Source: an uncultured Spirochaetaceae bacterium
GTDB taxonomy: Bacteria; Spirochaetota; Spirochaetia; DSM-27196; PWMO01
Direction: 5' to 3'
DNA length: 56,539 nucleotides
NCBI GenBank assembly: GCA_964623865.1
Contig: CAZUVX010000013.1
Coordinates: forward strand, 1-56,539
Shown: positions 13,867 to 52,053 of the stretch, one piece after another
Position numbering within the stretch: position 1 is the stretch's first letter
Layout of the letters: each line of letters opens with the position of its first letter
The notes under the pieces: model-generated
Databases searched by the model: none
What the model was told of the DNA's origin: nothing
The model's input: only the letters and a program-made list of their open reading frames with translations
Made by a program: the position numbers and the translations under genes

Positions 13867-15762
<1,896 letters not shown>

Positions 15763-15766
<4 letters not shown>

Positions 15767-17019
15767 TGCACGCTCACCTCCATGACGGAGTTGGCGGTGA
15801 ACCGCACCTTCTCCAGGTCCTTCGTTCGCAGCTTGACGCTGATCATCTCGGAGGGTTGCACGTGGTTCTTCTTGATCGAGCGCACCGGGACGTTATCAAT
15901 GGAGATATTGACCCGCGCGTTGTTCTTCACCACGAGGGACCGCATGTAGAGCTTGTCCGGTGCATCCGGATCGAACTGCGCGGGATTCACGTACTTGATG
16001 TTGGCGCCGGCGCGAATCTGCACCTGCCGCTTCGGACGCTTCCGCAGGAGATAGTCCGCGGCGTGTCCGCCGGTGCGCCGCGACTCCTCGGAGACGTAGT
16101 CAACCAAGTCGTGCACGTGCAGCACGTTCCCACAGGAGAAGATGCCGTCGACGCTGGTCATCATGGTCGAGTCCACCAGGGGTCCGCCGGTTTGCGGATT
16201 CAGCTCCACCCCCGCCGACTTGGAAAGCTCGTTTTCCGGAATCAGCCCGACCGACAGGAGGACCGTGTCACAGGCGATCTCGAACGACTGATCCGTGTCG
16301 GGAATGCCGTTCTCCAGCGGCGTGACCCGGACCCCCTCGACGCGCTCCTTGCCGTGGATCTCCGAGACGACGTGACTCAGGTATAGGGGGATCTGAAAAT
16401 CATTGAGACACTGGACGATGTTTCTGGTCAGGCCGGATGGATAGGGCTGGATCTCTACGACGGCGTGAACCTTCGCCCCGACCCAGGTCATTCGCCGCGC
16501 CATTATGAGGCCAATGTCGCCCGACCCGACCACGACGACGTCCTTTCCGGGGATGTACCCTTCAATGTTGACCAACCGCTGGGCAAGACCGGCGGTGTAG
16601 ACCCCGGCGGGTCTGGTACCGGGGATCCGGATGTTCCCCCGGTTGCGCTCCCGACACCCCATGGCCAGGATGACGGCCCGGGCGGAGATCCTCACCACTC
16701 CGTTGAGGGAGGAGAAGCACGCCGCCTCCTTCTGATCACCGTTGTCGGTGAGCTCTATCACGGTCGTGCTCAGAAAGACGTCGATTCCGGCGTCGCGAAC
16801 CTGGTCAATGAACTCCTCGGCGTACTCGGGCCCGGTGAACTCCTTCTTGAACTCCTGCAGACCGAAGCCGTTGTGGATGCACTGCAGGAGAATGCCCCCG
16901 AGACTCCCCTCCCGCTCCACGATCACCGGGGTGAATCCGCGACGGTGCACTTCCATGGCGGCGGCCATTCCCGCGGCCCCACCTCCGATTACCAGTACGT
17001 CGTATTCCAACTCCGTCAT
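15763..17019 (-). CDS. FAD/NAD(P)-binding pyridine nucleotide-disulfide oxidoreductase (NADH-oxidase-like subunit)
   Basis: ATG at 17019 overlaps the upstream stop (ATGA). Two dinucleotide folds (DVLVIGGGAAGMAAA and VVVVGSGDIG). Confidence 0.85.
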
Positions 17020-24570: not shown

Positions 24571-24571
24571 G

Positions 24572-25452: not shown

Positions 25453-26310
25453 CTATCCCTTCACGGCCCCGGCGGTGAGGCCCTTGATGATCCGCTCGTG
25501 CAACAGGATGTAGACAACGATCATGGGAATGATGGCAATGATGATGGCTGCATACATGGAGGTGTAGTCGGTTCGGAACTGGCTCGTGAAGAACCGGATC
25601 CCGAGCTGGAGCGTTCGCGACCTCTCGGATGCCGTCAGGAGCAGGGCGTAGATGAACTCGTTCCAGGAGAAGAGAAAGGCGAAGGTTCCCGCCGTCACCA
25701 GCCCCAGCTTGGACAGGGGAAGCACGATCCGCGCGTACCGTTGGAAGAATCCGCACCCGTCAATTATGCTCGCCTCCTCCAGCTCCCTGGGAATGGTCTT
25801 CATGAACCCGTGGACCAGGAAGAGGGAGATCGGAATGTTGATTCCCGAGTAGGTGATGACCAGCGCCCAGAGGGTGTCGTACAGCCCCATGCTCATGATG
25901 ATGCGGAAGTACGGGACCATAAGCGCGACGATGGGCACCAGAACTCCCGCCAGTATCAGGTTGAGTAGCGCGTTCTGGAACTTGAAGACGAACCGCGAGA
26001 AGACGTACGCCGCCATGGAGACGACAACAAGGTTCACCACCGTTGAAGCACCGGAAACGAAGAACGAGTTCAGAAATAGTCGATGCAGTCCCGATATCTG
26101 TACCGCTTCCACGTAGTTGGAGAACTGCGGTACATCCGGCAGGCTGAACGGCTCGGTCTGCAGCTCCAAATTGGTCTTCAAGGAGCCCACCAGGAGCCAC
26201 ACCAGGGGCACGAAGGTGGTGAACAAGAAGAAGATCAGTACCGCCCACTTGGCGATCTTTGCGACGTAATCGGTTGCCGACAGTCGGCGCGTTTTCTTGC
26301 TACGTCCCAC
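25453..26310 (-). CDS. Carbohydrate ABC transporter permease (MalG-like)
   Basis: Six-TM BPD-transporter protein with an EAA-like loop (EASIIDGCGFFQRYARIVLP). Start uncertain (GTG at 26310 just after the upstream stop; the ORF is open to ATG 26379). Confidence 0.85.
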   Translation of the reverse strand: MGRSKKTRRLSATDYVAKIAKWAVLIFFLFTTFVPLVWLLVGSLKTNLELQTEPFSLPDVPQFSNYVEAVQISGLHRLFLNSFFVSGASTVVNLVVVSMAAYVFSRFVFKFQNALLNLILAGVLVPIVALMVPYFRIIMSMGLYDTLWALVITYSGINIPISLFLVHGFMKTIPRELEEASIIDGCGFFQRYARIVLPLSKLGLVTAGTFAFLFSWNEFIYALLLTASERSRTLQLGIRFFTSQFRTDYTSMYAAIIIAIIPMIVVYILLHERIIKGLTAGAVKG

Positions 26311-26320
26311 AACCGGCCCC

Positions 26321-27229
26321 CTACTGCATGGATTCCGCGACGGGGTCGCGTCGCCCGATAAACCGACGAACGAGGACAATGATCACAGCTCCCACTGCGA
26401 TCAGCGTTGCACCGATCGAGTTGGCCACACCGTACTCGAGACCGCTCAGCTTCCGGTAGAGCAACAGGGCCATGACGGAGGTCGTGTTCGCCGGACCTCC
26501 CCGCGTCATGAGAAAGGTCGCCTCGAAGTGGCGTAATCCGAAGGCGATCGCCAGAGTCATGGCGGTAACCAGCACCCCGCGAATCATGGGAATGGTGATG
26601 AACCGCTCCTGCTGCCAGACGTTCGCACCGTCGATCTCCGCGGACTCGTAGAAGGACTCGGGAACCGACATGGTCCCGGCCAGAATGATGATCATGAAAT
26701 AGCCGATGTAGAGGAGCTCCTGAAGGATCACCGCGGGCAACGCCGTCTCTACCTGCCCGAGCCAGTTGTTGGTCCACTCCTCCAGGCCGATCGCCTCCAG
26801 AAAGGCGTTGATGGCGCCGAACTCGGCGTTGTACAGAGCCAGCCACAACATGGCAATAGCAACCTTCGAAATGACATTGGGCAGGAAGTAGACGGTACGC
26901 AGCACCCGCCACGCCCGAGGCTTCCGCGCCAGTATCATTGCGACGGTCGCCGCCAGAAAGATCTGAACGAACCCCAGCGAGAAGGCCCAGATGAAGTTGT
27001 TCCGCAAGGAGAGCTGGAAGCTCTGGCTCTGAAAGTTGCGAACGTAGTTCTGCAAACCAAGGAACTCCGGCACTCCCACACCGTTCCACTGGGTGAAGCT
27101 TATGAAGAACACATAGATGAGCGGATAGATGAAGAACATCCCGTAGAGGGTCAGAATCGGCAGCAGGAAGAGGAGAATGCCCTTCCAGTTCAGTCTGAAG
27201 CTCGAAATCCCTTTACCCGTGCCCGCCAC
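26321..27229 (-). CDS. Carbohydrate ABC transporter permease (MalF-like)
   Basis: 302 aa with an EAA loop (ESAEIDGANVWQQERFITIP). CUT1-family architecture. Confidence 0.88.
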   Translation of the reverse strand: MAGTGKGISSFRLNWKGILLFLLPILTLYGMFFIYPLIYVFFISFTQWNGVGVPEFLGLQNYVRNFQSQSFQLSLRNNFIWAFSLGFVQIFLAATVAMILARKPRAWRVLRTVYFLPNVISKVAIAMLWLALYNAEFGAINAFLEAIGLEEWTNNWLGQVETALPAVILQELLYIGYFMIIILAGTMSVPESFYESAEIDGANVWQQERFITIPMIRGVLVTAMTLAIAFGLRHFEATFLMTRGGPANTTSVMALLLYRKLSGLEYGVANSIGATLIAVGAVIIVLVRRFIGRRDPVAESMQ

Positions 27230-27256
27230 GGCGTCCTCCCGTTCACGGAATCAGAT

Positions 27257-27284
27257 GGCCGGGGAGCCTTCCGGCTCCCCGGCC
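27257..27284 (-). terminator. Intercistronic 12-bp GC stem-loop between the binding-protein and permease genes (partial terminator / mRNA stabiliser)
   Basis: GGCCGGGGAGCC-ttcc-GGCTCCCCGGCC is a perfect stem. It sits directly 3' of the SBP gene on the minus-strand transcript. There is no U tract. Confidence 0.45.
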
Positions 27285-27326
27285 GATACCAACGCCCCGG
27301 TGGCGTTGACTCGTAATCAGCGTACG

Positions 27327-28598
27327 CTAATCGGTGTACTGCTGCAGGTTCTCGACGAACTCCTCGGGAGTCTGTCGGTCAAGCGCCATGGCGCCGAAGC
27401 CCTGACCGAGCTCTGCAATGAGGTCGACAGGGTAATTGGCCTGCATGTGCTCCACGGTGAATTCCGCGTTGCTGAAGGCCTCAATGAAGCGAGCCTGGAG
27501 CGGATCCACCTCGTCCTCGGAGAGGCTGTACTTGATGGCGAACATGGACCCGGCATCCAGGGAGATGCGCCGCACGTTCTCCGGATCAGTCATGAACTGC
27601 ATGAAGGCGACGACCGCCTCGCGCTTTCGCGGATCGTCGGTGTTCGCCGCGGCCAGGTTGGACAGGGGGAAGGAGATCTGGTGGCCGTGGAAGTCACCCA
27701 CCTGCGGTGCCGGAGTGAGGCGAGTTGCGTCCTTCACGTCGGGGGCCTGCTCTGCAACGTTACCGATGAACCAGGGCCCGTTGATGAAGATGGCGGTGCG
27801 CTCGGACATGTAGTGACCGCTGGACTCACCGGGGCCGGCGCCGACGGCGTCGCTCGTCGTGTAGTCCTTGAACATGCGCTGCATGATCTCGGCGGCTTCC
27901 ACGTACTGCGGATGCGACAGCGGGCGGTCCCACACATCGGGTCCGCCGATGCTGGCGAGGATGTGCGAGTACCAGAGCATGGAGGTCCAAGCGTTGGACC
28001 CGCCGGTCATCTGCGAGGTCGGTGCAATGTCGTTGGCTTTCAGATCCTCCGCCATTTCCCAGAACTCGTCGATGGTCTCGGGAAAGCTGTCCCAGCCCGC
28101 CTCGGCAAGGAGATCCTCGTTGTACCAGATCGGGGTAACGCCGACTTCGAAGGGTACGCTCTTCACGGCGCCGTCACGGGCCGCTCCCTCAACGGTGCCG
28201 GAAACGAAGTTGTCTCCCCAGTCCCCTTCCAGCTCTTCGGTGAAGTCGAAAAGCAGGTCGCCTTCGTAGTACTGAAAGGTCGTGGGGTCGGGATTGAAGA
28301 CAAAGAGATCCGGGACCTGGCCCGCCGCAATGGACGCGTTGATCTTGTCACGATACCCGTCGGTGTCGGGGTTCGCCTCGATCTCGACCTTATACCGGCC
28401 CTCGTACTCGGCGTTGAACTCCTCGACGAGAGTCTCAACGATCTCGGCCTTGGCGTCCTGGCCGACCCAGAAGGTCGGGAACTCGAGGACTACTTCGCCC
28501 TCTTCCTGCTCACCCTGCCCGGCGGCAAAGGCGGAGCCTAGACTAACCGTGAGCAGCACGAGCAGTGCCACCCCTACAGTTAGAAACCGCTTGTTCAT
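27327..28598 (-). CDS. Sugar ABC transporter substrate-binding protein (family 1 extracellular solute-binding protein)
   Basis: 423 aa. Signal peptide MNKRFLTVGVALLVLLTVSLGSAFAAG, then an acidic SBP_bac_1-like body. First gene of the transporter unit. Confidence 0.85.
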   Translation of the reverse strand: MNKRFLTVGVALLVLLTVSLGSAFAAGQGEQEEGEVVLEFPTFWVGQDAKAEIVETLVEEFNAEYEGRYKVEIEANPDTDGYRDKINASIAAGQVPDLFVFNPDPTTFQYYEGDLLFDFTEELEGDWGDNFVSGTVEGAARDGAVKSVPFEVGVTPIWYNEDLLAEAGWDSFPETIDEFWEMAEDLKANDIAPTSQMTGGSNAWTSMLWYSHILASIGGPDVWDRPLSHPQYVEAAEIMQRMFKDYTTSDAVGAGPGESSGHYMSERTAIFINGPWFIGNVAEQAPDVKDATRLTPAPQVGDFHGHQISFPLSNLAAANTDDPRKREAVVAFMQFMTDPENVRRISLDAGSMFAIKYSLSEDEVDPLQARFIEAFSNAEFTVEHMQANYPVDLIAELGQGFGAMALDRQTPEEFVENLQQYTD

Positions 28599-28712: not shown

Positions 28713-29933
28713 CTATCCACCAACGGTGGAGAAAAAGCCGTCAAAGACCAGGTCCGCCGCACCTTGTCCGGCGATTACCGGATCGTACTCGTGCGGCACA
28801 ATGTCGCGTTGCACCGCCGCTGCGAAGGGCCTCAGGGAACCGAGACTCTCCCGTAGCGCGTCACACAGCACCTCCGACAACGCCTGGGAACGCGTCACAA
28901 TGAGAACCGCCTCCGGGTTGAGCGTGTTCAGCAAGCTGTACACCGCCGTAACCAGATGCGCCTTTGCTTCATCGAGGGTTCGCAGCACCTCCTCGTCTCC
29001 TGCAGCGAGGCGGGCGAAGAAATCCTCGATGCTGGGAACCTCCGCCTCCCGGCGCAGGACCTCCTCGCTGAGATAGGTCTCCAGACATCCCCGGCGCCCG
29101 CACCGGCACTCCGGCCCGGACGGGTCCACGACCAGGTGGCCCACCTCGAGGGCGGTCCGGTGGTGGTTCACGAAGAGCGCGCCGTTTTGAATGAAGGCGC
29201 CGCCGACGCCGGCTCGCAGCACCAGAGTGAGCACGGATCGGCGTCCCAGCACCGATCCGTAGCGGTACTCAGAAAGGGCAATCACCGCCGCGTTATTGTG
29301 AAGGTGCACCGGGACGCCGAAGACCTCCTCCAGGCGCTCCCGCAATGGGAAGCCGTCCATTCCGTCGATCCGCGGGTAGCGAAGAACGACGCCGGACTCA
29401 AGGTCCACCATACCCGGTGCGCCGACCCCGATTCCCAGGAGACGGTCGCGATCTATACCCGCCTGGTCAATCGCCTCGGTGATCAGCGCCTCGAGGCGCT
29501 CCAGGATCTCTTCGACTCCGGTGAGACCGTTGAGGTCCACAACATCCCGGTAGACCGGGGCTCCCGCGAAGTCGACCACCACGGCGGAGGCCGACCGCGA
29601 CCAGAAGTCCACACCTACTACGTAGAGGGCGTCGGGATTGACGCAGTAGTACGCCGGGCGGCGCCCTTTGCGCTCGCCCTCCGACCGCTCGACGGGCGGA
29701 TCCGACCGTTTCTCCCCCTGTCGCTCCGAGAGCCTCTCTGCGTCCTCGACACAGTTGCTGATGAAGCCCTGCTCCTCCAGGACCTGGAAGATGCGGAATA
29801 CCGTCGGCGGCTTGAGCCCGGTGAGCTGCGCAACCTGACTCTGGGACAATCCGCTCTGACGGCGGATGAGGCTCAACACCAGCTTCTCGTTGCGGGCGCG
29901 AATGTCGGCGCTGCGGAGGGGCTTCGCTTCCAT
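28713..29933 (-). CDS. ROK family transcriptional regulator
   Basis: N-terminal wHTH (RARNEKLVLSLIRRQSGLSQSQVAQLTGLKPPTVFRIFQVLEEQGFI). ROK glucokinase-like body with the zinc motif CRCGRRGCLETY. A charged low-complexity insert of about 35 aa lies between the two domains. Confidence 0.88.
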   Translation of the reverse strand: MEAKPLRSADIRARNEKLVLSLIRRQSGLSQSQVAQLTGLKPPTVFRIFQVLEEQGFISNCVEDAERLSERQGEKRSDPPVERSEGERKGRRPAYYCVNPDALYVVGVDFWSRSASAVVVDFAGAPVYRDVVDLNGLTGVEEILERLEALITEAIDQAGIDRDRLLGIGVGAPGMVDLESGVVLRYPRIDGMDGFPLRERLEEVFGVPVHLHNNAAVIALSEYRYGSVLGRRSVLTLVLRAGVGGAFIQNGALFVNHHRTALEVGHLVVDPSGPECRCGRRGCLETYLSEEVLRREAEVPSIEDFFARLAAGDEEVLRTLDEAKAHLVTAVYSLLNTLNPEAVLIVTRSQALSEVLCDALRESLGSLRPFAAAVQRDIVPHEYDPVIAGQGAADLVFDGFFSTVGG

Positions 29934-31279
29934 CAGCGGTTTCCCTCTCCCGGCGCAGCCCCGGGACGGATGCGTGCGACCGTGGCGTTGGCAATCGGCA
30001 TGACCGCCACGTGCGCGTCCGCCGGCAGCGCCGCCAACACCGCCTCCACTGCTTCCTGTGCGGACGGCATGGGCTCCAGCAGCAGTCGGCGCACTCGCGC
30101 CGGCTCCATGGTGGAAACGAGGATCACTCTGCGTCCGGCTGCGTCCCGGGCAATCTGGAACGCCTTGTGGGGACCTACGTGGAACCCCTCCCGGGCGAAT
30201 CGTTCCAGTACCTCAGCGTTGGAGGAGCACTCCCGCACCCACGTCTCGTACTTCTCGCTGCCGGTTCCCTCCGGGCACGCCGCAAGCAGGACAATCGGCG
30301 CACCGGGCGCTGCAATGAGAGCGGCGTGGGCCAGCGCTTTCTGGGCCTGGTAGAGATTGATGTCTTTGGGATGCCCCCCGGGGGACGCAATGACCGCATC
30401 TGCAGCGCGAGGAACCTCGACCTCGAAGATGCTTCGGGCAATCTCGACGCCGGCGCGCATGACCTCCCCCGGTCGTCCCGCAACGGCGTCGACGAGCTCC
30501 TTCTGGCGATTGAGAACTGCGTTGAGGGCAAGGTCGACCCGCACCATCGTCCCCATCTCCTCGACGTCGTCACGCGTCGGGTTGCCCGCCAGGTTGCCCA
30601 GGCGGGCCGCCTCATGGCTCATGAAGGCGTGGTTGTAGTCGACGGTCTCGAATCCGGCAAGGCCGATCACGGCGCTCTTCACGCCGCCGGAGTATCCCAT
30701 GAACTGGTGGGGCTCAATGTTCCCCACGACAATGCGCAGGTCCGCCTCCAGAAAGCGGCGGTTCATCCATACCGGCGTTCCCCGAGAGGTGGTGCCGACG
30801 CGATCCAGGTTCTCGGTGTCATACGCGTCGTGACTGACCACACGGTAACCCTCCACCACTTCACCGGGCAGGATTCCCGGGAACTCCCCGGGATCCATGG
30901 GCGCGTGGGTCCCCGTCGCAACGAGGAAGGTTATGTTCTCCGCGACAAAGCCGACGGCGTGGAGCTTCTTCAGGAGGGGCGGCAGGAGCACGTCGTGGGG
31001 GACCGGGCGCGTTTTGTCGTTCACCGCAATGGCGACGGTTTTCAGGCCGGCGAAGTCTTCCCAGGTAATGCAGCCGACCAGGGTGTCCAGCGCCTCTTCC
31101 ACGCGGCCCTGCGGATCCGCGGCGCCCTCCCGGGGCACCGGAGCCACCTCGCAGGCACGGAAGGAGGCGGGCAGCTCAACGGCTACCGTGTCGCGTCCGT
31201 AGGGCAGATGGAAACTCGCCGCGTCCACGTCATCCTCCCGGCCGTGGGCCGCGCCGGAGCGACCGCTGCCGCCCGACAC
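29933..31279 (-). CDS. LarA family (nickel-pincer nucleotide-dependent) 2-hydroxyacid racemase/epimerase
   Basis: 448 aa with motifs AVNDKTRPVPH, LVATGTHAP, NIEPHQFMGYSGGVKS, DYNHAF and INLYQAQKAL. As I recall them, these match the cofactor-binding and catalytic residues of lactate racemase LarA. Confidence 0.8.
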   Translation of the reverse strand: MSGGSGRSGAAHGREDDVDAASFHLPYGRDTVAVELPASFRACEVAPVPREGAADPQGRVEEALDTLVGCITWEDFAGLKTVAIAVNDKTRPVPHDVLLPPLLKKLHAVGFVAENITFLVATGTHAPMDPGEFPGILPGEVVEGYRVVSHDAYDTENLDRVGTTSRGTPVWMNRRFLEADLRIVVGNIEPHQFMGYSGGVKSAVIGLAGFETVDYNHAFMSHEAARLGNLAGNPTRDDVEEMGTMVRVDLALNAVLNRQKELVDAVAGRPGEVMRAGVEIARSIFEVEVPRAADAVIASPGGHPKDINLYQAQKALAHAALIAAPGAPIVLLAACPEGTGSEKYETWVRECSSNAEVLERFAREGFHVGPHKAFQIARDAAGRRVILVSTMEPARVRRLLLEPMPSAQEAVEAVLAALPADAHVAVMPIANATVARIRPGAAPGEGNR

Positions 31280-31301: not shown

Positions 31302-32453
31302 CTATGCGCTCCGGTACAGCTTCGTCAGCACGAATTCGTTGTGACGAAGCGCTTCGGCCGAAGTCAGTCGGCCGTTGATGGTTCGGTACATGACGTCCAT
31401 GACCGCATCCGCCGCCTGGTCCAGGTTCATCTCCAGACGCAGCATGCCGGTAAGATCGACGTCAATGTGCTCGCTCATGGTCTCCACCGTCAACGGGTTC
31501 GCCGAAATCTTCATGACGGGAATGATGGGGTTGCCGATGATGTTGCCCTGCCCGGTCGTGAAGAAGTGAAGCACCGATCCCCCTGCCGCGCACAGTGTCA
31601 CCTGCTCGGCGGCGGCGCTCGAGCTGTCCATGAAGTGGAGCCCCCCGGCCCTCGCCGGTTCCTCCGCCGGTTTCAACACCGAGGTCACCTGGTTGTTCCC
31701 GATCTTCTCGACGTTTCCAAGGGCCTTCTCTTCGATGGTCGAGAGACCGCCCCGGATGTTTCCTTCGGTGGGCTGAGAGCCCAGGAGGTCCGCGCCGGTA
31801 CCCGTGATGAAGTCCTGGTAGTCCTGGAAGGTCTTCATGAAGTCGGCCTTGACCTCTTCAGTGATACACTTGTCGGCAATCTTGTCCTCTGCGCCGGTGA
31901 CCTCGCTGGTCTCGCCGAAGAAGGCAGTCGAGCCCTCCGCGAGCATGCGCTCCAAGGTGCGGCCGATCGCCGGATTGGAGGCGAGCCCCAGCGTCGTATC
32001 GGACTCGCCGCACTTCGCGCTCACCCACATATCCTTCAGAGAGATAGGTTCCCGCTTTCGCTCGCTCGCCCACTGCACCAATTGCCGCGCCTTCTGCGCC
32101 GCTTGATAGATCGTCTTCAGGTCCCCGGCGCGCTCAATGCTGAAGGACTCCACGGGCTTGCCCGTCGCAGCGATCCCATCGGCAATGCGCTTGGTCCAGT
32201 TCGGCTCAATGCCGATGACAATCGCCGCGGCAATGTTGGGATTACGCCCCGTACCGATGAGCGTCCGGAAGGTGAGCTCCAGGTCCTCACCGAACTGCAG
32301 ACGTCCGTACGGATGGGGAAGCGCCATGACGTCGCGAATCAGATAGGACACCCCTTCCGCGGCGGCGTTGGAGATATCGTCCACAGGGATGACTGCAACG
32401 TAGTTGCGCACCCCTACTCGTCCGTTCTCGCGTCGATATCCGGTCAGTTCCAT
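31302..32453 (-). CDS. UxaA family dehydratase/lyase large subunit (SuyB-like; candidate (2R)-sulfolactate sulfo-lyase beta subunit)
   Basis: ELTGYRRENGRVGVRNYVAVIPV..., the UxaA C-terminal family over its whole length. GAGGTGGG RBS and ATG at 32453 sharing a TAATG junction with the small subunit (alternative GTG at 32462). Confidence 0.75.
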   Translation of the reverse strand: MELTGYRRENGRVGVRNYVAVIPVDDISNAAAEGVSYLIRDVMALPHPYGRLQFGEDLELTFRTLIGTGRNPNIAAAIVIGIEPNWTKRIADGIAATGKPVESFSIERAGDLKTIYQAAQKARQLVQWASERKREPISLKDMWVSAKCGESDTTLGLASNPAIGRTLERMLAEGSTAFFGETSEVTGAEDKIADKCITEEVKADFMKTFQDYQDFITGTGADLLGSQPTEGNIRGGLSTIEEKALGNVEKIGNNQVTSVLKPAEEPARAGGLHFMDSSSAAAEQVTLCAAGGSVLHFFTTGQGNIIGNPIIPVMKISANPLTVETMSEHIDVDLTGMLRLEMNLDQAADAVMDVMYRTINGRLTSAEALRHNEFVLTKLYRSA

Positions 32454-32749
32454 TACGCCCACCTCACACTCTTAACGTTCTGGGTATGGACGTGGTCGCC
32501 GGTGGTGATCTTCCTGGTCGCCCGTCCAATGCTCCGTCCGTACTTCACTACGTCTTTGCCTTCGTCGATGTCGCGCAAGGCGATCTTGTGCCCCAGGGGA
32601 ATCTCCTCGCCGGCAGTAACGGTCGCAATCTCCTTGCCGTCCAGCGTCACCGCCTTCACCGAGGTCCCCGCTGCGACGTCCTGCACCACGACGGCCACAT
32701 CATCGTTGGCCTCGTGCATGAGTGCACCGTGCTTCATAGCTGTTGCCAT
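32453..32749 (-). CDS. SAF-domain small subunit of a split UxaA-family enzyme (SuyA-like)
   Basis: 98 aa. DDVAVVVQDVAAGT...EIPLGHKIALRDIDEGKDVVKYGRSIGRATRKITTGDHVHTQN is the UxaA N-terminal/SAF pattern. The start may instead be the second ATG at 32737, which has better RBS spacing. Confidence 0.75.
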   Translation of the reverse strand: MATAMKHGALMHEANDDVAVVVQDVAAGTSVKAVTLDGKEIATVTAGEEIPLGHKIALRDIDEGKDVVKYGRSIGRATRKITTGDHVHTQNVKSVRWA

Positions 32750-32761
32750 CCTCCGTGATTA

Positions 32762-32790
32762 TTGACCACAATGTTTTTGTTTCTTACAAT
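32762..32790 (+). promoter_or_regulatory. Sigma70-like promoter for the transaldolase-aldehyde dehydrogenase operon (TTGACC-17 nt-TACAAT)
   Basis: TTGACC at 32762..32767, a 17-nt spacer, then TACAAT at 32785..32790, inside the only AT-rich patch of the 198-bp divergent intergenic region. This implies a 5'UTR of about 150 nt. Confidence 0.55.
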
Positions 32791-32797
32791 AAGAAAC
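32779..32797. promoter_or_regulatory. Perfect inverted repeat GTTTCTTA-caa-TAAGAAAC (candidate repressor operator)
   Basis: 8+3+8 perfect palindrome overlapping the -10 of the predicted tal promoter. It lies in the leader of the divergent suyA-like operon. Confidence 0.5.
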
Positions 32798-32841
32798 TAA
32801 TAAAGGTGTACCGGTGTTCGGAGGAATTGTCAAGGGCAGTG

Positions 32842-32881
32842 CCCGGGTAACCTGGATTCCCGGGTAACCCGGGATCCCGGG
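32842..32881 (+). repeat. Cluster of four CCCGGG palindromes including a CCCGGGTAACC direct repeat, in the tal 5' leader
   Basis: CCCGGG at 32842, 32859, 32868 and 32876. CCCGGGTAACC at 32842..32852 and 32859..32869. The copies are mutually complementary, so alternative hairpins are possible. Confidence 0.6.
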
Positions 32882-32947
32882 GAGCCTCGGCACCGGTAGC
32901 CGGTCGGCACCGAAGCATGAGTCTGTTTCCCATAAGGAGTACGCGAC

Positions 32948-33592
32948 ATGAAGTTCTTTCTCGACACGGCCATGGTAGATGAGATCAAGGAGGCGGCCCG
33001 CTGGGGCATCCTCGACGGCGTGACCACCAATCCAACGCATGTTTCAAAGACCGGGCGCACCGTCTCGGACCTCTATCCGGAGATTGTGAAGCTCGTCGAC
33101 GGCGACGTCAGTCTGGAGACGATCGGCCTCGACGCCGACACGATCGTCAAGGAGGGGCGCGACCTCGCAAAGGTCGGCGACAACGTGGTCGTAAAGGTTC
33201 CGGTCATGAAGGAGGGTCTTGTCGCCGTGAAGCGGCTGGCAGCCGAGGGAATCCGAACCAACGTGACCGTCAACTTTCAGCCCGTTCAGGCCCTCATGGC
33301 GGCCAAGGCGGGGGCCTCTTACATCAGCCCCTTCGTAGGTCGCCTCGATTACGTGGGCCACGACGGCATGGAGCTGGTTGAGCAAATCCGCCAAATCTAC
33401 GACAACTACGGCTACGAGACGGAGATCATTGTCGCCGCGGTACGGCACCCGCTTCACGTCGTCCAGGCGGCACTGATCGGCGCCGAAGTGTGCACCATGA
33501 ACTTCGACGTAATGAGCAAGCTCTACGATCACCCGCTGACCGATCAGGGCATCGAGATGTTTCTGGAAGACTACAAGAAGGTGCCGAAGTAA
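32948..33592 (+). CDS. Transaldolase, TalC/Fsa subfamily (candidate 6-deoxy-6-sulfofructose transaldolase)
   Basis: AAGGAG RBS. 214 aa, MKFFLDTA...DGVTTNP, Schiff-base Lys in VVVKVP. Glu in SLETIG and Phe in SPFVGRLD indicate the transaldolase rather than the F6P-aldolase subtype. Confidence 0.88.
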   Translation: MKFFLDTAMVDEIKEAARWGILDGVTTNPTHVSKTGRTVSDLYPEIVKLVDGDVSLETIGLDADTIVKEGRDLAKVGDNVVVKVPVMKEGLVAVKRLAAEGIRTNVTVNFQPVQALMAAKAGASYISPFVGRLDYVGHDGMELVEQIRQIYDNYGYETEIIVAAVRHPLHVVQAALIGAEVCTMNFDVMSKLYDHPLTDQGIEMFLEDYKKVPK

Positions 33593-33601
33593 GGGGGCCT
33601 C

Positions 33602-35035
33602 ATGGACACGAAGAAGCTGTATCTCAACGGCGAATGGGTCGACACCGGCAACTACTTCACCGTCGTCGATCCGGGCAATCGGGAGGAGGTTGCCCGGGTC
33701 GCTGCGGCGGGACCCGAGCTTGCCAAGAAGGCCGTGGACGATGCCTGGGAAGCCTTCGCCACCTGGCGACGCCTCACCGGGATCAAGCGGGGAGACTACC
33801 TCCTCGCGGTTGCCGAGTGCCTGGAGCGCCGCAAGGATGAGATCGGCAAGACCATCGTTCGGGAGAACGGCAAGCCCCTCGGCCAGGCCGTCGGTGAGGT
33901 GAACGTCGCGGTAGACCATCTGCGCTGGTTCGCCGAGGAGGCGCGCCGGGGGTACGGACGGATCATCCCGCACCAGGCCGACGGCAAGCGCCACCTGGTG
34001 CTCAAGCAACCGGTGGGCCCGGTCGCCTGCATCTCTCCGTGGAACTTCCCGCTTGTGCTGTCGGTGCGGAAGGTCGCCCCCGCCCTGGCGGCGGGGTGCA
34101 CAGTGATCCTTCGGCCCGCAACGCAGACCCCGCTCTGCAACGTTGCCCTGGCTGAGTGCTTTGACGAGGTCGGTATCCCGAAGGGAGTCTTCCAGCTCAT
34201 TGCAGGCCCGGCGAGCAAGATCGTCGGCGAGTTCATGGACCACCCGAACCTCCGCAAGATCTCCTTCACCGGATCCACCGAGGTGGGCAAGAAGCTGCTG
34301 CAACAGTCGGCGAAGACCGTGACGAAGCTCTCCCTTGAGCTCGGCGGACACGCCCCCGTAGTCGTCTTCGAAGATGCGGACCTGGACACGGCCGTCGAGG
34401 GCGCACTGATCACCAAGTTCCGCAACACCGGCCAGTCGTGTATTGCTGCAAACCGGATCTACGTGCAGCGCTCAATTTACGAGGAGTTCCTGAAACGCTT
34501 CGGGGAGAAGGCATCCAGGATGAAGGTCGGCTACGGCCTGGATGAAGGGGTCGAGATCGGCGCCATTGTAGATGAAGAGGGCCTCAAGACCGCCCTGGCA
34601 CACATTGAGAACGCCAAGGAGTCAGGGGGTCGCGTCATCGCCGGAGGAAGGGTCGTCGAAGGCGCAACGGGCAACTTCCTCGAACCCACCGTCATTGCAG
34701 ATGTTCCCGACACTGCCGCGTGCATGCGCGAGGAGACCTTCGCCCCGATCGCACCGGTCGTCGCCTTCGACACCGAAGAGGAGGCGATACGGCAGGCCAA
34801 CAACACGCGCTACGGTCTTGCCGCCTACTTCTACACCCAGGACATCAATCGCGGTTTCCGCGTCGCCGAGGCCCTGGAGGCCGGTACGGTCGGCTGGAAC
34901 GACGCCGTTCCCTCGACCAGCAACGCCCCTTTCGGCGGCTTCAAGGAGAGCGGCCTGGGCCGCGAGCTCGGACAGGAGGGCATGGAAGCCTTCATGGAGA
35001 CGAAGCACGTCTCCCTGGGCGGGGTGGACGTGTAA
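33602..35035 (+). CDS. NAD(P)+-dependent aldehyde dehydrogenase, GabD-like (candidate sulfolactaldehyde dehydrogenase)
   Basis: 477 aa. ALDH motifs FTGSTEVGKKL, ELGGHAP, catalytic Cys in GQSCIAANR, and EETFAPIAP. Starts 9 nt after the transaldolase stop. Confidence 0.9.
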   Translation: MDTKKLYLNGEWVDTGNYFTVVDPGNREEVARVAAAGPELAKKAVDDAWEAFATWRRLTGIKRGDYLLAVAECLERRKDEIGKTIVRENGKPLGQAVGEVNVAVDHLRWFAEEARRGYGRIIPHQADGKRHLVLKQPVGPVACISPWNFPLVLSVRKVAPALAAGCTVILRPATQTPLCNVALAECFDEVGIPKGVFQLIAGPASKIVGEFMDHPNLRKISFTGSTEVGKKLLQQSAKTVTKLSLELGGHAPVVVFEDADLDTAVEGALITKFRNTGQSCIAANRIYVQRSIYEEFLKRFGEKASRMKVGYGLDEGVEIGAIVDEEGLKTALAHIENAKESGGRVIAGGRVVEGATGNFLEPTVIADVPDTAACMREETFAPIAPVVAFDTEEEAIRQANNTRYGLAAYFYTQDINRGFRVAEALEAGTVGWNDAVPSTSNAPFGGFKESGLGRELGQEGMEAFMETKHVSLGGVDV

Positions 35036-35138
35036 GCCCGCCGCCGGGCTGAGCGCCCGGGCAGCAGTGCGCACGCCGCCGTGCAGGCAAAGGCCGACTG
35101 CGGCGGCGTATCTGCGGTCGCGGGCGCCCGTCAGGGTT

Positions 35139-35172
35139 GCCGGGGCTTCCGCGGAAGCGGCCCAGCCCCGGC
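35139..35172. terminator. GC-rich nested hairpin between the convergent aldehyde dehydrogenase and TauE genes
   Basis: GCCGGGG...CCCCGGC outer stem enclosing the palindrome CTTCCGCGGAAG. Located in the 141-bp convergent gap. No U tract. Confidence 0.4.
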
Positions 35173-35176
35173 AGCC

Positions 35177-35923
35177 CTATAGCCCCGGCACTATCGCACT
35201 CGCGACCAGATACAGCCCCACGACAACGAGAGCCACGTCCGTTACGGTCTTGAAGCGGGCGGCGTCCACCTTTCCGGAGAGCCGCGCACCCAGAAAGACT
35301 GAGGCCAGGACAACGGGTATGAACGGCGCCGACCGCGCCGCAACGGATGCGTTGATGCTTCCCGCGACAATGTGGGTCGCCAGGATTCCCACACTCATGA
35401 CGACGAAGTAGAACTGTACATTGGACTTCGCGCGCATCCGGTCGGGATCCGAGGCGTACAGGTAGGCCACCATACCCGGGCCGGGCGTGGCGAAGGCGCC
35501 GCCCAGCAGTCCCGCGATAAGCGTGAAGATGTAGCCGACTCCGCGCTTCCCCAGTGCCCTCCGGGAGCGCTCCACCATTGTGATGTTCCAGATGATGAGC
35601 ACGATCACCACCCCACCGAGCACGCCGGTTATGACCTCCTGAGGCAGCGAATAGAGAAAGAGTGCACCCAGGGGCAAGACCACCATTCCCGCCACGCCGA
35701 AACGAAGAATCCGGCGGTACTCGACCCCGTGACGGTGGAGGAAGAAGTTGTAGAGCACCACCGCCCCGCCGGGCAGGATGGCCATGCCGACCGCCTCAGG
35801 GGTCGGATAGACCACGGCGAGGGCCGGCACGACGATCAATCCGTAGGCAAAGCCGGTGAGGCCTTGGACGAATCCCCCAAGGAAGTAGAGGCCGGCAGTG
35901 AGCAGAATGAGCGAAAGGTCCAT
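35177..35923 (-). CDS. TauE/SafE family sulfite/organosulfonate exporter
   Basis: ATG at 35923. 248 aa with 7-8 TM helices. Gly-rich helices (FLGGFVQGLTGFAYG, LIAGLLGGAFATPGPG) are typical of the TauE/SafE family. Confidence 0.85.
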   Translation of the reverse strand: MDLSLILLTAGLYFLGGFVQGLTGFAYGLIVVPALAVVYPTPEAVGMAILPGGAVVLYNFFLHRHGVEYRRILRFGVAGMVVLPLGALFLYSLPQEVITGVLGGVVIVLIIWNITMVERSRRALGKRGVGYIFTLIAGLLGGAFATPGPGMVAYLYASDPDRMRAKSNVQFYFVVMSVGILATHIVAGSINASVAARSAPFIPVVLASVFLGARLSGKVDAARFKTVTDVALVVVGLYLVASAIVPGL

Positions 35924-35951: not shown

Positions 35952-37325
35952 CTACCGCCACCCGATCCGCAACTGCCGCGCCAGCTTCTGCAGCAGTCCA
36001 CGATGGTGCCCCTGCACGACACACATATGGTGCGGCATGCCGGCGTGGAGCATCTCCTCGAACCACTCGTTCACATCGACTTCGGTGATTTCCGCGAGAC
36101 CGTTCGTAGCCATGATGTGACGCTTGGGCGTGACGGTGCGGCCCTCGAGGGCGGTCATGTGGTAGAAGCCGTCGGTACGCCACATTCGGAAAATGGTGAC
36201 GGGCATGTCCGCCTTGATAGTGGCTTCCACCACTGCGGGGAGCCGGTTATTGAATTGAACGCCAATGTGCGGGCCGAGCTCCGTCCCCACAGGCTCGCAG
36301 AGCTCGAAGGGTGCCGCCCCGGTATGCCAGATGCCTATGTGCCTCGCGTCATGCTCGAGCCAGTCCGACAGGTAGACCGGACCAATTCCCAGGTCCTCCG
36401 CAATGAGACTGCACAGGGCGCCGTCGACATCTCCCTCCATGGCGATCGCCTTCCCCTCGGAGACGTGCCGTGCGAGGGCCAGGTAGGGCCACTGCTTCAT
36501 GACCGTGGGGAGGTCCGGCCAGTCCCGGAACGCGAGGGCCGAGGAGGCCTCGTTGGTGAGATACTCCTGCATGGCAAGGTAGTACCGCGCCTGTAGAGGC
36601 AGCGCGGATTCGTCGGCATCCCGGTAGGGCAAGCCCAGGGACTCGAAGGCCGAGACCTCGGCGGCGACGGCATCATCCTTCTGGTTCTCTACCCGGCCGA
36701 GAAACTCCTGGACGCTCTCGTGGTAGAGCTGGACTCCGAGCTCGTCATTGAGATCAATGGGGTCGGCGTGGAAGTCCACGAAGCCGGGAGCGTGATACCC
36801 GACCAGCGCCACTTTGCCGCGGCGCAGGTCCGTTGCCGCAACGACCAGGCGGACCGCCTCTTCCAGACGGCCGCGTACCGCCGAGTCGCCGGGATCGCCG
36901 TAGACGAACTCGAAGGGGCGGTTGAGATGGCGCAGCGTTGCCGCCATGACGTGGGTACCGACCAGGGAGTTCGCGCTGATCATGGAACCCTCCTCCTTCT
37001 CCGGCGTCGCCCAGAGAACGAGGGGGCGGTTCCACACCTGCGCGAGCACCGGCGCCAGGCGACCGTCACTGATGGTCGGTTGCGTCACCACGACGGTGTC
37101 GACGCCGGCAGCCTCACACTCCGCGAGAGCCGCCCGCACGCCGGCGTCGTCGGCAATGTTGTCGGAAGGGATGGTCACCCCGAAGGGCGCCTCCCCCGCG
37201 TACGCCCGAAGACGCTTCTTGATCTCGGCGCCCCAGTCGGGGTCGAAGCCGGGCCGCTTCCTGCCGAGGAGGAGCAGTCCGACTCGTCGAGTTGTCAGGT
37301 TGTCACTGTGCTCTCCGGTTGCCAT
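35952..37325 (-). CDS. L-fucose/L-arabinose isomerase family protein (candidate sulfosugar aldose-ketose isomerase)
   Basis: 457 aa. N-terminal Rossmann-like domain and a C-terminal domain with AMEGDVDGAL and GIWHTGAAP segments resembling the metal-binding regions of FucI/AraA-like isomerases. Operonic with the TauE gene. Confidence 0.7.
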   Translation of the reverse strand: MATGEHSDNLTTRRVGLLLLGRKRPGFDPDWGAEIKKRLRAYAGEAPFGVTIPSDNIADDAGVRAALAECEAAGVDTVVVTQPTISDGRLAPVLAQVWNRPLVLWATPEKEEGSMISANSLVGTHVMAATLRHLNRPFEFVYGDPGDSAVRGRLEEAVRLVVAATDLRRGKVALVGYHAPGFVDFHADPIDLNDELGVQLYHESVQEFLGRVENQKDDAVAAEVSAFESLGLPYRDADESALPLQARYYLAMQEYLTNEASSALAFRDWPDLPTVMKQWPYLALARHVSEGKAIAMEGDVDGALCSLIAEDLGIGPVYLSDWLEHDARHIGIWHTGAAPFELCEPVGTELGPHIGVQFNNRLPAVVEATIKADMPVTIFRMWRTDGFYHMTALEGRTVTPKRHIMATNGLAEITEVDVNEWFEEMLHAGMPHHMCVVQGHHRGLLQKLARQLRIGWR

Positions 37326-52046: not shown

Positions 52047-52053
52047 GTCGGCT

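Follow-up and report, generated by a model that had tools for sequence, protein, structure and literature searches.

In Bacillus aryabhattai SOS1 and B. megaterium DSM 1804, the sulfoglycolytic transaldolase (sulfo-TAL, SFT) pathway is encoded by sftATXGIFDE, whose products include SqvA/SftT, SftI, SftG, SftD/SlaB and SftE. Sulfoglycolysis yields S-sulfolactate, and the sulfo-lyase SuyAB takes the R form. In Chromohalobacter salexigens, SlcC and ComC form a two-dehydrogenase 'racemase' that is found with SuyAB and the SlcHFG transporter, a TTT system known as a sulfolactate importer. Paracoccus wurundjeri has a tandem pathway of sulfofucolysis, SlcC/ComC and SuyAB (bioRxiv 2023.08.01.551581).

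Here, we analyzed a DNA stretch of 56,539 nt (the window) from an uncultured Spirochaetaceae bacterium of hypersaline microbial mats. The original prediction had assigned a transaldolase (Tal), an aldehyde dehydrogenase (ALDH) and a TauE/SafE exporter to the lower sulfo-TAL pathway, and all three genes were found (Table 1). The trio probably (at roughly 0.7) forms the core of a sulfo-TAL pathway within a ~24-kb sulfoquinovosyl-glycerol island, a pathway that would continue past sulfolactate via a LarAH5 racemase and SuyAB. All pathway steps were deduced from sequence and gene context.

Table 1. Features of the island and the matches that define them.
Feature	Position	Strand	Details
Glycerol kinase GlpK	13867..15381	-	FGGY_N/C; NCBIfam GlpK 849 bits (cutoff 498)
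Three-gene glycerol-3-phosphate dehydrogenase/oxidase-like set (DUF1667; Pyr_redox_2; DAO+BFD)	15374..18449	-	Pfam; NCBIfam type 2 glycerol-3-P oxidase 320 bits, under cutoff 460
GPH/MFS_2 symporter	18439..20226	-	MFS_2 286 bits; TIGR00792 gph 227 bits; true start probably near 19970
GH31 sulfoquinovosidase, YihQ type	20055..22142	-	NF007746 861 bits (cutoff 553); E. coli YihQ 5aed 678 bits
Gfo/Idh/MocA	22139-23374	-	no role in scheme; travels with Tal clade
Amidohydro_2	23371-24570	-	no role in scheme; travels with Tal clade
NagB-like protein	24572-25435	-	no role in scheme; travels with Tal clade
Carbohydrate ABC permeases (BPD_transp_1)	25453-26310, 26321-27229	-	Pfam
ABC solute-binding protein (SBP_bac_1)	27327-28598	-	Pfam
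ROK-family transcription regulator, N-terminal winged helix	28713..29933	-	ROK 134 bits + HTH_24; NagC/Mlc-like
LarAH5-family nickel-pincer (NPN) 2-hydroxyacid racemase	29933..31279	-	NF052595 533 bits (cutoff 462)
SuyB, (2R)-3-sulfolactate sulfo-lyase large subunit	31302..32453	-	GD_AH_second + GD_AH_C
SuyA, small SAF-domain subunit	32453..32737	-	SAF; 94 aa
Divergent control region, tal/suyA	32738..32947		consensus matches
TalC-type transaldolase (Tal)	32948-33592	+	214 aa; Pfam TAL_FSA 180 bits; TIGR00875 304 bits (cutoff 246); distinct clade
GabD-type NAD(P)+ aldehyde dehydrogenase (ALDH)	33602-35035	+	477 aa; Aldedh 552 bits
TauE/SafE anion exporter	35177-35923	-	248 aa; PF01925 98 bits
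L-fucose/L-arabinose-isomerase-like protein	35952..37325	-	NF048012 (SftI) full-length match, 155 bits, below cutoff 700

The transaldolase clade and its dehydrogenase partner

As had been described, exactly 9 nt (33593-33601) separate the Tal stop from the ALDH start, and the TauE gene converges on this pair, with 141 nt between the TauE and ALDH stops. The TauE gene itself lies 28 nt downstream of an isomerase gene on the same strand. The residues named in advance as diagnostic, E57 (SLETIG), K83 (VVVKVP) and F129 (SPFVGR), are all present; together with D6 they place Tal in the transaldolase type and rule out the FSA type. The ALDH has the expected intact catalytic pair, E246 and C280 aligning with E261 and C295 of the Rhizobium leguminosarum sulfolactaldehyde dehydrogenase 8c54, and its proposed anion-binding pair R156/R274 aligns with R171/R289. 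In sequence, the ALDH is indistinguishable from a succinate-semialdehyde dehydrogenase: it scores 481 bits against E. coli GabD and 443 bits against RlGabD, and the Arg pair is common to them. We propose that Tal is a 6-deoxy-6-sulfofructose transaldolase and the ALDH a sulfolactaldehyde dehydrogenase.

Relatives that are at least 63% identical to Tal group in one clade (neighbor-joining bootstrap 74/100), with hosts among the Spirochaetes, Planctomycetes, Verrucomicrobia and Acidobacteria; the sequence itself was found in microbial-mat and hypersaline-lake metagenomes. We compared 77 related loci, 22 of this clade and 55 housekeeping. An ALDH homologue follows Tal at 15 of the 22 clade loci, spread over four phyla, and at 0 of the 55 housekeeping loci (Fisher p = 4.8e-11). 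The pairing is far beyond chance, and it makes very improbable the reading in which a pentose-phosphate Tal and a succinate-semialdehyde dehydrogenase merely happen to lie near sulfonate genes. That reading draws on the best solved matches, a housekeeping Tal and E. coli GabD, on the general-family names that NCBIfam gives to both proteins, and on the lack of a second tal within the window. Against it also stand the remaining island genes, which are sulfonate-related, and four otherwise invariant Tal residues that are replaced exactly as in characterized sulfofructose transaldolase (SF-TAL).

These four replacements, L31H, D135 to A/N/S/Q/Y, S164A and P185 to N/A/S/G, occur in 22/22 clade members and in 3/3 SftT-type proteins (including BmSF-TAL, 8bc3), at positions invariant or nearly so in the 55 housekeeping Tal. 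S164A corresponds to A170 in the published W-A-R sulfonate motif. The alignment with SftT/SqvA suggested at the outset shows that Tal is not an orthologue: identity is 39%, and Tal scored 263 bits against the housekeeping T. maritima Tal versus 159 bits against BmSF-TAL. The clade is 39.3% identical to SftT, which in turn is 40.3% identical to housekeeping Tal, and an exclusive grouping of clade and SftT had a bootstrap of 1/100. Since there is thus no exclusive common ancestry with BmSF-TAL, the shared changes look convergent, the clade being separate from the Firmicutes/Chloroflexi SftT type and having apparently acquired the same phosphate/sulfonate-site changes independently. Tal would then represent an unrecognized type of sulfofructose transaldolase. 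It retains R132, the canonical phosphate-binding residue, in place of which BmSF-TAL carries W138; hence, given its greater overall likeness to housekeeping Tal, it could act in the pentose phosphate pathway as well, or even chiefly there. The segment TNVTVNFQPVQAL does differ from canonical TalC-type enzymes, as noted previously, with V108 and N109 departing from L and C/V/I. The idea that this TNVTVNF segment takes part in sulfonate recognition fared less well: it is a clade signature, yet it is absent from characterized SF-TAL, and the changes held in common are H31, non-Asp135, A164 and non-Pro185.

The surrounding island, probably for sulfoquinovosyl glycerol

The genes around the trio suggest the upper part of the pathway. 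The GPH symporter, the ABC system or both would import sulfoquinovose (SQ) or SQ-glycerol; the symporter is a candidate for the role of YihO/SftA, and SftA of the Bacillus cluster is likewise an MFS symporter. The ABC genes (25453..28598) include no ATPase gene, and no informative solved relative of this transporter was found. The YihQ-type GH31 would free SQ and glycerol, the latter passing to GlpK and on to the glycerol-3-phosphate dehydrogenase. The fucose-isomerase-like enzyme, a distant relative of SftI, would convert SQ to sulfofructose (SF). Homologues 54-55% identical to it belong to sulfo-TK clusters in the cultured spirochaetes S. africana and A. americana, where the same isomerase is thus combined with another C-C cleavage module; in S. 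africana the pairing with the ROK regulator recurs.

Gfo/Idh/MocA, Amidohydro_2 and the NagB-like protein are three conserved island genes outside the proposed scheme.

The GH31 keeps the catalytic Asp residues, with D405, D472, W304, Y508, Q262 and Q288 all conserved in the YihQ comparison, and Gln (Q306, next to R305) replaces the sulfonate-binding Arg301; two homologues from other loci have Ser-Gln there. This substitution would fit a sulfosugar or sulfoglycoside other than SQ or SQ-glycerol, with Tal acting on a different sulfoketose, or a partly different SQ route that involves the three genes without a role. Those genes have homologues at six other loci (L008, L011, L012, L013, L016 and L093) and are conserved beside the Tal clade in three phyla and on a sulfo-EMP2-like contig; at two loci (L017 and L031) a Gfo-family gene follows Tal in place of the ALDH, and a pathway for sulfofucose that ends in SuyAB is already known. 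We nevertheless regard a different substrate or route as improbable. All other sulfosugar-site residues of YihQ are kept, the isomerase family is common to the spirochaete sulfo-TK clusters, transaldolases require the 3S,4R ketose configuration, which sulfofructose has, and cyanobacterial mats contain SQ as their dominant sulfosugar.

A predicted racemase and sulfo-lyase beside tal

Directly upstream of tal and divergent from it lie suyAB and the LarAH5 gene. The suyA stop and suyB start overlap by 1 nt. SuyB shares 58% identity with its counterpart in the hpsNO-suyAB cluster of C. pinatubonensis and 60% with that in the suyAB-exporter cluster of P. versutus, both known degraders; identities to other members of the UxaA family stay below 40%. 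LarAH5 keeps HQFMG..GGVK and the catalytic His and Lys, and is 40% identical to Dhaf_4417/Mar1 of Desulfitobacterium hafniense. Mar1 racemizes malate in vitro with a KM of 55 mM; its authors themselves doubt malate as the native substrate, and the group is always linked to COG2721. This high KM and constant linkage make 3-sulfolactate the likely native substrate. A 92% orthologue of characterized Mar1 is located in suyA-suyB-larAH5-tctCAB, and of six sampled contigs with LarAH5 homologues (52-59% identity), five place them in sulfoglycolysis clusters alongside SuyAB or ComA and one shows no sulfonate context. LarAH5 is hence a likely candidate for a 3-sulfolactate racemase, which, if true, would answer the open question of the natural substrate of this nickel-dependent racemase. 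The window carries no larB, larC or larE for NPN cofactor synthesis.

From SF, Tal would form a Schiff base at K83 and pass C1-C3 on to either glyceraldehyde-3-P or erythrose-4-P; the products would be F6P or S7P together with (S)-sulfolactaldehyde. The ALDH would oxidize this aldehyde to (S)-sulfolactate, LarAH5 would invert C2 to give (R)-sulfolactate, and SuyAB would cleave this to pyruvate and sulfite. TauE would release sulfite, or sulfolactate on overflow.

Because suyAB and the racemase gene adjoin tal, the end product that leaves the cell is probably not sulfolactate, in contrast to the original prediction. Desulfonation of the C3 sulfonate most likely takes place inside the cell, and TauE, which may carry sulfite and/or sulfolactate, then more plausibly exports sulfite. 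In the classical arrangement TauE would instead expel sulfolactate, and SuyAB with LarAH5 would serve, under separate regulation, to scavenge external sulfolactate. B. aryabhattai excretes sulfolactate, with the TauE-type SftE as predicted exporter; here TauE is co-transcribed with the isomerase and not with suyAB, and seven Tal-ALDH clade loci have no SuyAB in the available sequence. We consider this arrangement unlikely. On the strand opposite to tal, suyA starts 210 nt away from it, with one control region common to both, and the island contains no dedicated sulfolactate importer such as the TTT system of the Desulfitobacterium cluster. Tal and SuyAB adjoin at 9/22 clade loci across phyla (SuyB near 0/55 housekeeping loci, p = 3.1e-6), and sulfite needs an exit, for which TauE/SafE is the family proposed. 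By consensus match, the control region contains a sigma-70-like promoter, TTGACC-17-TACAAT (32762-32790, + strand), whose -10 element is covered by the perfect palindrome TTTCTTA-caa-TAAGAAA (32780-32796), and AAGGAG precedes tal; these presumably serve as promoter, regulatory palindrome and ribosome-binding site.

If the pathway is true, no oxygenase would be needed to use all six carbons, and one gene island would take sulfoquinovose, an abundant plant and cyanobacterial sulfosugar, to pyruvate and sulfite. The sulfo-TAL assignment itself is strongly supported by the YihQ-type GH31, the SftI-like isomerase, the importers, cross-phylum synteny and the active-site substitutions common with SF-TAL; it falls short in sulfolactate export, SftT/SqvA identity and the TNVTVNF segment.

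Comparison with described pathways

The island follows the logic of the Bacillus sulfo-TAL cluster with nearly all of its parts: an importer of the MFS type, a GH31 sulfoquinovosidase, an SQ isomerase resembling fucose isomerase, a small transaldolase of the decameric type, an ALDH, and TauE for export. It differs in its non-SftT Tal (39%; R132, not W138), its isomerase, only distantly related to SftI (155 bits, cutoff 700), the lack of DUF4867 (SftX) and a ROK rather than a GntR regulator; an ABC system, glycerol genes and the SuyAB-LarAH5 desulfonation module are added, and the host is a spirochaete. Compared with BmSF-TAL (PDB 8bc2/8bc3/8bc4; W-A-R motif), Tal shares the D6, E, K, N and S catalytic/sugar residues, H31, R166 (R172) and A164 (A170) at the canonical phosphate-binding Ser, and both have lost the second Asp after GR/GW (Y135 here, N141 there) and Pro185 (N185 here, G191 there). 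It differs from BmSF-TAL in keeping Arg where the latter has W138, and in being nearer to housekeeping Tal overall.

As in P. wurundjeri (bioRxiv 2023.08.01.551581), one organism would take a sulfosugar through sulfolactaldehyde, S-sulfolactate and R-sulfolactate to SuyAB cleavage and TauE-type sulfite export. There, sulfofucose is degraded by an Entner-Doudoroff-like route, and inversion proceeds via sulfopyruvate through two NAD(P)-dependent dehydrogenases, whereas here SQ would pass through a transaldolase, and inversion would fall to one LarA-type racemase. SlcC/ComC of C. salexigens likewise supplies R-sulfolactate to SuyAB, and at some other Tal-clade loci the genes next to SuyAB are Ldh_2 (ComC-like) or 2-Hacid_dh rather than LarA; the window has neither of these dehydrogenases, and the LarA homologue occupies that place. 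With Mar1 (Dhaf_4417, named nickel-dependent malate racemase), LarAH5 has in common the NCBIfam family, the HQFMG..G.K loop, the GPHK motif and an adjacent COG2721 protein. This neighbor, orthologous to SuyB both in Desulfitobacterium and here, suggests 3-sulfolactate as the substrate.

Gene layout of the sulfosugar island

A long array of sulfosugar-related genes, the island, has the transaldolase (Tal), the aldehyde dehydrogenase (ALDH) and the TauE/SafE exporter at its right-hand end. The GC content of the window is high (60-68%); genuine genes were chosen via third-position GC and compared with the gene calls of an identical public contig. The original prediction of a transaldolase, an ALDH starting nine nt further on and a convergent TauE exporter was correct in every detail. 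The remainder of the window contains housekeeping genes unrelated to the island, and a search of the window for a second tal found none. Downstream of the island, a BatD/TPR/VWA/DUF58 gene set resembles a Bat aerotolerance operon and appears unrelated to the finding.

Features of the island and adjoining sequence, from left to right
Feature	Position	Strand	Remarks
Glycerol kinase		-	leftmost gene of the array; 849 bits
Glycerol-3-phosphate dehydrogenase-like set, three genes		-	left of the symporter
GPH/MFS_2 symporter		-	left of GH31
GH31 glycosidase	20055-22142	-	YihQ sulfoquinovosidase model, 861 bits (cutoff 553)
NagB-like, Amidohydro_2, Gfo/Idh/MocA oxidoreductase	22139-25435	-	left of the ABC genes
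ABC solute-binding protein and two permeases		-	left of the ROK regulator
ROK regulator		-	left of the LarA homologue
LarA homologue	29933-31279	-	next left of suyB, 22 nt downstream; NF052595, 533 bits
suyB	31302-32453	-	GD_AH, 383 aa; 1-nt overlap with suyA
suyA	32453-32737	-	SAF, 94 aa
tal-suyA intergenic region	32738-32947
Palindrome	32780-32796		TTTCTTA-caa-TAAGAAA (7-3-7)
Repeated CCCGGGTAACC motifs	32842-32880		shortly past the palindrome
tal	32948-33592	+	214 aa
ALDH	33602-35035	+	477 aa
TauE/SafE	35177-35923	-	248 aa
L-fucose-isomerase-like gene	35952-37325	-	TauE co-oriented, 28 nt downstream
BatD/TPR/VWA/DUF58 set	45543-52094	-

The intergenic region between tal and suyA carries a sigma-70-like promoter. 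Its perfect palindrome covers the predicted -10 hexamer of tal; as a candidate operator it might be bound by the ROK regulator. No intrinsic terminators were found between ALDH and TauE. The window DNA was detected in metagenomes from microbial mats and hypersaline lakes, solely in DNA runs, with no RNA runs among the matches. Such habitats are rich in cyanobacterial sulfolipid. Identical copies of the Tal protein were found in MAG contigs, and the nearest genomes, at 96% and 88% identity, come from uncultured Spirochaetaceae.

The transaldolase, its partners and its active site

Tal scores above the curated cutoffs of the TalC/MipB small transaldolase models (PF00923, 180 bits, cutoff 27; TIGR00875, 304.4 bits, cutoff 245.95). 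Residues D6, E57, K83, N105, S127 and F129 are present; D6, E57, K83 and F129 align to 1vpx and 3s0c and are kept in all members of the Tal clade (Tal and its 21 closest relatives). The predicted diagnostic residues E57, F129 and K83 were thus confirmed in alignments. A Glu in place of Gln and a Phe in place of Tyr distinguish transaldolase from fructose-6-phosphate aldolase; Glu57 and Phe129 hence place Tal among the transaldolases.

The ALDH (Aldedh, 552 bits) has the intact catalytic pair that had been read from its sequence (C280/E246), equivalent to C295/E261 of RlGabD; W147-N148-F149, with the oxyanion Asn, is also present. R156/R274 correspond to R171/R289, the Arg pair proposed for sulfonate binding. 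E. coli GabD (481 bits) and the sulfolactaldehyde dehydrogenase of Rhizobium leguminosarum (8c54, 443 bits) rank as its best solved relatives. True succinate-semialdehyde dehydrogenases carry the same residues, so that sequence alone cannot settle the substrate. The exporter matches PF01925 over profile positions 3-237 of 237 (98.3 bits, cutoff 32.6). As in a sulfo-TAL cluster, the ALDH adjoins the transaldolase and an exporter, here the convergent TauE, accompanies them.

The genomic context of Tal was analyzed in 80 loci from GTDB genomes. The Tal clade (NJ bootstrap 74/100) includes Spirochaetes, Pirellulales and other Planctomycetota, Verrucomicrobiota and Acidobacteriota. An ALDH follows Tal in 15/22 clade loci versus 0/55 housekeeping loci (p = 4.8e-11), and SuyAB adjoins it in 9/22 versus 0/55 (p = 3.1e-6). 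Isomerase, GH31, NagB-like and ABC genes recur in the clade loci and are absent beside all 55 housekeeping Tal. In some Planctomycetota loci of the clade (L014, 9376-10197 and 13735-14808; L031, 4739-5716) a xylose-isomerase-like TIM-barrel gene separates tal from the ALDH, and an Ldh_2 (ComC-like) or D-2-hydroxyacid dehydrogenase gene adjoins SuyAB where LarAH5 would otherwise stand. The ALDH position behind tal is taken by a Gfo gene in L017 and L031. When plasmids were searched for a Firmicutes sft cluster, tblastn of Tal and the isomerase against PLSDB returned only housekeeping or pentose-phosphate contexts, e.g. E. gilvus pCR1A.

Two SftT-type transaldolases (in contigs L089 and L091) were met during sampling of LarA contexts. 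A PDB query with that of L089 gave the solved SftT/SqvA-type enzyme BmSF-TAL (8bc3) as top match, together with its full alignment. The 55 housekeeping Tal were then aligned with the 22 clade sequences and with 3 enzymes of SftT type. Precisely four positions that are (near-)invariant in housekeeping Tal (L31 in 54/55; D135, S164 and P185 each in 55/55) were altered in both the clade and the SftT-type enzymes. H31 and A164 occur in 22/22 clade members and 3/3 SftT-type enzymes; residue 135 is non-acidic and residue 185 non-Pro in all clade members and in the SftT-type. S164 is the canonical phosphate-binding Ser (TalB S226). For BmSF-TAL a sulfonate-orienting W-A-R motif (W138, A170, R172) has been published, A170 and R172 being assigned to it here by alignment. 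A164 and R166 of Tal correspond to A170 and R172, and where BmSF-TAL has W138 the clade retains Arg (R132 in Tal). That R132 and R166 are kept makes sense: the phosphate groups of GAP/E4P and F6P/S7P have to fit into this pocket too. The canonical R132 together with the overall likeness to housekeeping Tal makes a dual role of the enzyme possible.

Alignment with a characterized sulfofructose (SF) transaldolase bore out a shared active-site signature, but not orthology. Tal matches the housekeeping Tal of T. maritima with 263 bits and BmSF-TAL with 159 bits and, judged by overall similarity, is not an SftT/SqvA orthologue. Mean identity to SftT is 39.3% for the clade and 40.3% for housekeeping Tal, and an exclusive clade-SftT grouping arose in 1/100 bootstraps. 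As the clade is no nearer to SftT than housekeeping Tal is, the shared substitutions look convergent. The TNVTVNF segment, linked earlier to sulfonate recognition as a speculation, was rejected as the sulfonate determinant: SftT-type enzymes have the canonical L-V/I there, so that V108 and N109, although clade-specific, are unlikely to be key determinants. Synteny and active-site signature are two independent lines that point to SF as the Tal substrate. The clade appears to represent a second, convergent lineage of putative SF transaldolases, new relative to the searchable literature, and the four common substitutions offer a testable rule for sulfonate versus phosphate specificity.

SuyAB and the LarA homologue

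Left of tal, a small SAF protein and a large GD_AH protein are encoded by translationally coupled genes, as in the SuyAB reference architecture (~95 aa and ~385 aa). The large protein is 58% identical to a C. pinatubonensis protein of an hpsN-hpsO-...-suyAB locus and 60% identical to a P. versutus protein whose gene is followed by a sulfate-exporter-family gene; identity falls sharply, to <40%, for other UxaA-family proteins. By these similarities the split SAF/GD_AH pair is SuyAB, its large subunit being an orthologue of the SuyB proteins from established sulfolactate/DHPS degraders. The substrate of SuyAB is (R)-sulfolactate, whereas sulfoglycolysis gives the S form; known systems invert (S)-sulfolactate with two dehydrogenases, SlcC and ComC. 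Tal-clade loci without LarA have an Ldh_2 (ComC-like) or 2-Hacid_dh (D-2-hydroxyacid dehydrogenase) gene beside SuyAB. The alternation of these dehydrogenase genes with LarAH5 beside SuyAB is a pattern of non-orthologous replacement.

The LarA homologue belongs to the LarAH5 family (NCBIfam NF052595, 'malate racemase, LarAH5 family', cutoff 462) and is 40% identical to Mar1 (Dhaf_4417) of Desulfitobacterium hafniense. All motifs are present (ATGTH, EPHQFMGYSGGVK, NH, GPHK), with the two catalytic His residues, the Lys/His that bind the nickel-pincer cofactor (NPN) and the group-5 HQF loop kept; the group-5 signature is a Gln next after the second catalytic His (LarA paper). The NPN-synthesis genes larB, larC and larE do not occur within the 56.5-kb window. 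The family carries the name 'nickel-dependent malate racemase' in NCBIfam. With L-malate, Mar1 was reported to have a KM of 55 mM (kcat/KM 0.39 s-1 mM-1); the values for Mar2 are 0.38 mM and 185. Table S1 of Desguin et al. (2020) records a link to COG2721 'altronate dehydratase' for 19/19 cases of group 5, and the same adjacency was found here, with LarAH5 beside suyB. The string 'sulfo' is absent from both LarA papers.

The neighborhoods of LarAH5 genes argue for a sulfonate substrate. A 92% orthologue of Mar1 sits in the arrangement suyA-suyB-larAH5-tctC-tctA-tctB, and the SuyB encoded there is 58-62% identical to SuyB of the window, Cupriavidus and Paracoccus. The known importers of sulfolactate are TTT systems (SlcHFG), whose genes follow the same C-A-B order, and D. 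hafniense is reported to respire sulfolactate. LarAH5 homologues of 52-59% identity lie in sulfonate clusters in 5/6 contigs, the exception (L088) having no sulfonate context. One contig reads GH31-SftT-MFS-SuyAB-exporter-LarAH5 and another, sulfo-EMP2-like, PFK-aldolase-GH4-SuyAB-LarAH5; two have ComA (phosphosulfolactate synthase family) and one a different GD_AH protein. By inference, LarAH5 enzymes would act as racemases of 3-sulfolactate, which is the sulfonate isostere of malate. The reading of LarAH5 as a nickel-pincer 3-sulfolactate racemase that, with SuyAB or ComA, permits oxygenase-free mineralisation of sulfoquinovose (SQ) or sulfolactate in one organism has, in our estimate, slightly better than even odds (about 0.55). 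LarAH5 would then be a one-enzyme substitute for the SlcC/ComC dehydrogenase pair, and LarAH5 plus SuyAB (or a ComA-type enzyme) would have been added onto sulfo-TAL, sulfo-EMP2 and sulfolactate-uptake modules. A literature search of journals other than subscription-only ones returned no report of a sulfolactate racemase, and this role of LarAH5 appears new relative to the searchable literature. The island thereby gives a concrete candidate answer to a question of the LarA field, the native substrate of LarAH5/Mar1.

In Dehalobacterium formicoaceticum (L096, 6521-10757) two identical suyAB copies flank LarAH5 on either side, followed by tctBAC. The sulfoglycolysis clusters in contigs L091 (339-10263) and L093 (527-7626) have ComA and LarAH5 but lack SuyAB; they share a conserved protein of ~334 aa without a Pfam match (74% identical between the two), and L091 also carries GAPDH-like and PGK genes. 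This suggests an alternative desulfonation route that passes through phosphosulfolactate and gives PEP and sulfite, possibly with substrate-level phosphorylation. In L089, with SftT-type sulfo-TAL, SuyAB and LarAH5, no ALDH is present and an aldehyde:ferredoxin oxidoreductase (AFOR) gene lies downstream (11388-13286), which may provide a ferredoxin-linked step of sulfolactaldehyde oxidation in an anaerobe.

Predicted pathway and comparison with known systems

Besides its match to the sulfoquinovosidase model, the GH31 protein matches E. coli YihQ structures with 678 bits. The catalytic D410/D477 and W309/Y513 are conserved, as are all other SQ-site residues except one: Q306 stands at the sulfonate-binding Arg301 of YihQ, with Arg305 beside it (GRQLMW versus GKRVMW). 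GH31 homologues of loci L008 and L013 have Ser-Gln at this site. With Q306, the sulfonate pocket may be a variant one or the specificity may have shifted.

The isomerase matches the SftI model NF048012 over its full length but weakly (154.6 bits, below the cutoff of 700), and among solved structures only arabinose isomerase (26 bits). Its homologues are common in Spirochaetes. Isomerases of 54-55% identity occur in the cultured Spirochaeta africana (CP003282.1, 140818-162242) and Alkalispirochaeta americana (FTMS01000014.1), each with the same ROK regulator, and the S. africana locus also holds the ABC genes. Beside both lie a split transketolase, an RpiB-like isomerase, an ALDH, an ADP-forming CoA ligase, a Na_sulph_symp transporter and exporters, including TauE in S. 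africana, an apparent sulfo-TK type layout. Coupling of the same isomerase to either known SF-cleaving module supports a role in isomerisation of SQ to SF, and the two species could serve as laboratory models of spirochaete sulfoglycolysis.

The solute-binding protein found no match to the SQ-glycerol binder SmoF among solved structures. The Gfo/Idh/MocA protein was considered as a GH188 NAD-dependent sulfoquinovosidase, a reading that found no support: its matches to 8qc2/8qc3 are weak (33-37 bits) and rank below many other Gfo enzymes. Together with the Amidohydro_2 and NagB-like genes (NagB-like: no Pfam match; NCBIfam NagB, ~90 bits), it travels with the Tal clade in Spirochaetes and Pirellulales. 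Related loci of the three genes are L011 10672-12554, L012 8522-9175 and L093 7626-8489; the NagB-like gene lies directly behind tal in L011 and L012 and occurs also in a sulfo-EMP2-like Chloroflexi contig. All three are conserved but have no place in the proposed scheme.

In this scheme, every step of which we infer, an SQ-type substrate would be taken up and hydrolyzed by GH31, the freed glycerol passing to GlpK and glycerol-3-phosphate dehydrogenase. The isomerase would convert SQ to SF, and Tal, via a Schiff base at K83, would move C1-C3 onto GAP or E4P and set free (S)-sulfolactaldehyde, which the NAD(P)+-dependent ALDH would oxidise to (S)-sulfolactate. LarAH5 would yield (R)-sulfolactate by NPN-mediated hydride shuttling, SuyAB would cleave this to pyruvate and sulfite, and TauE would carry sulfite out of the cell. 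The island predicts an oxygen-independent single-organism route in which all six carbons are used and sulfite is released.

About 10 billion tonnes of SQ are produced per year. In current models sulfoglycolytic bacteria excrete a C3 sulfonate, which a second organism must desulfonate (2026 review), and complete SQ catabolism in one organism is undemonstrated except by oxygenase routes (same review, July 2026). If the LarAH5 reading is true, complete mineralisation of SQ or sulfolactate without oxygenases would be open to single organisms, among them anaerobes like mat spirochaetes, Chloroflexi and Desulfitobacterium. A BLAST search seeded with SftT/SqvA at 40% identity cannot separate the Tal clade from housekeeping Tal, so sulfo-TAL capacity is probably under-counted; this would probably affect Spirochaetes, Planctomycetes, Verrucomicrobia and Acidobacteria.

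Sulfo-TAL itself is known, with bioinformatic reports extending it to Thermotogae and Chloroflexi, and for sulfofucose a pathway that ends in SuyAB has been described. The putative joining of an internal desulfonation module to sulfo-TAL appears new relative to the searchable literature. Compared with the B. aryabhattai sftATXGIFDE cluster, the island presents a parallel set of importer, transaldolase, GH31, isomerase, regulator, ALDH and TauE exporter.
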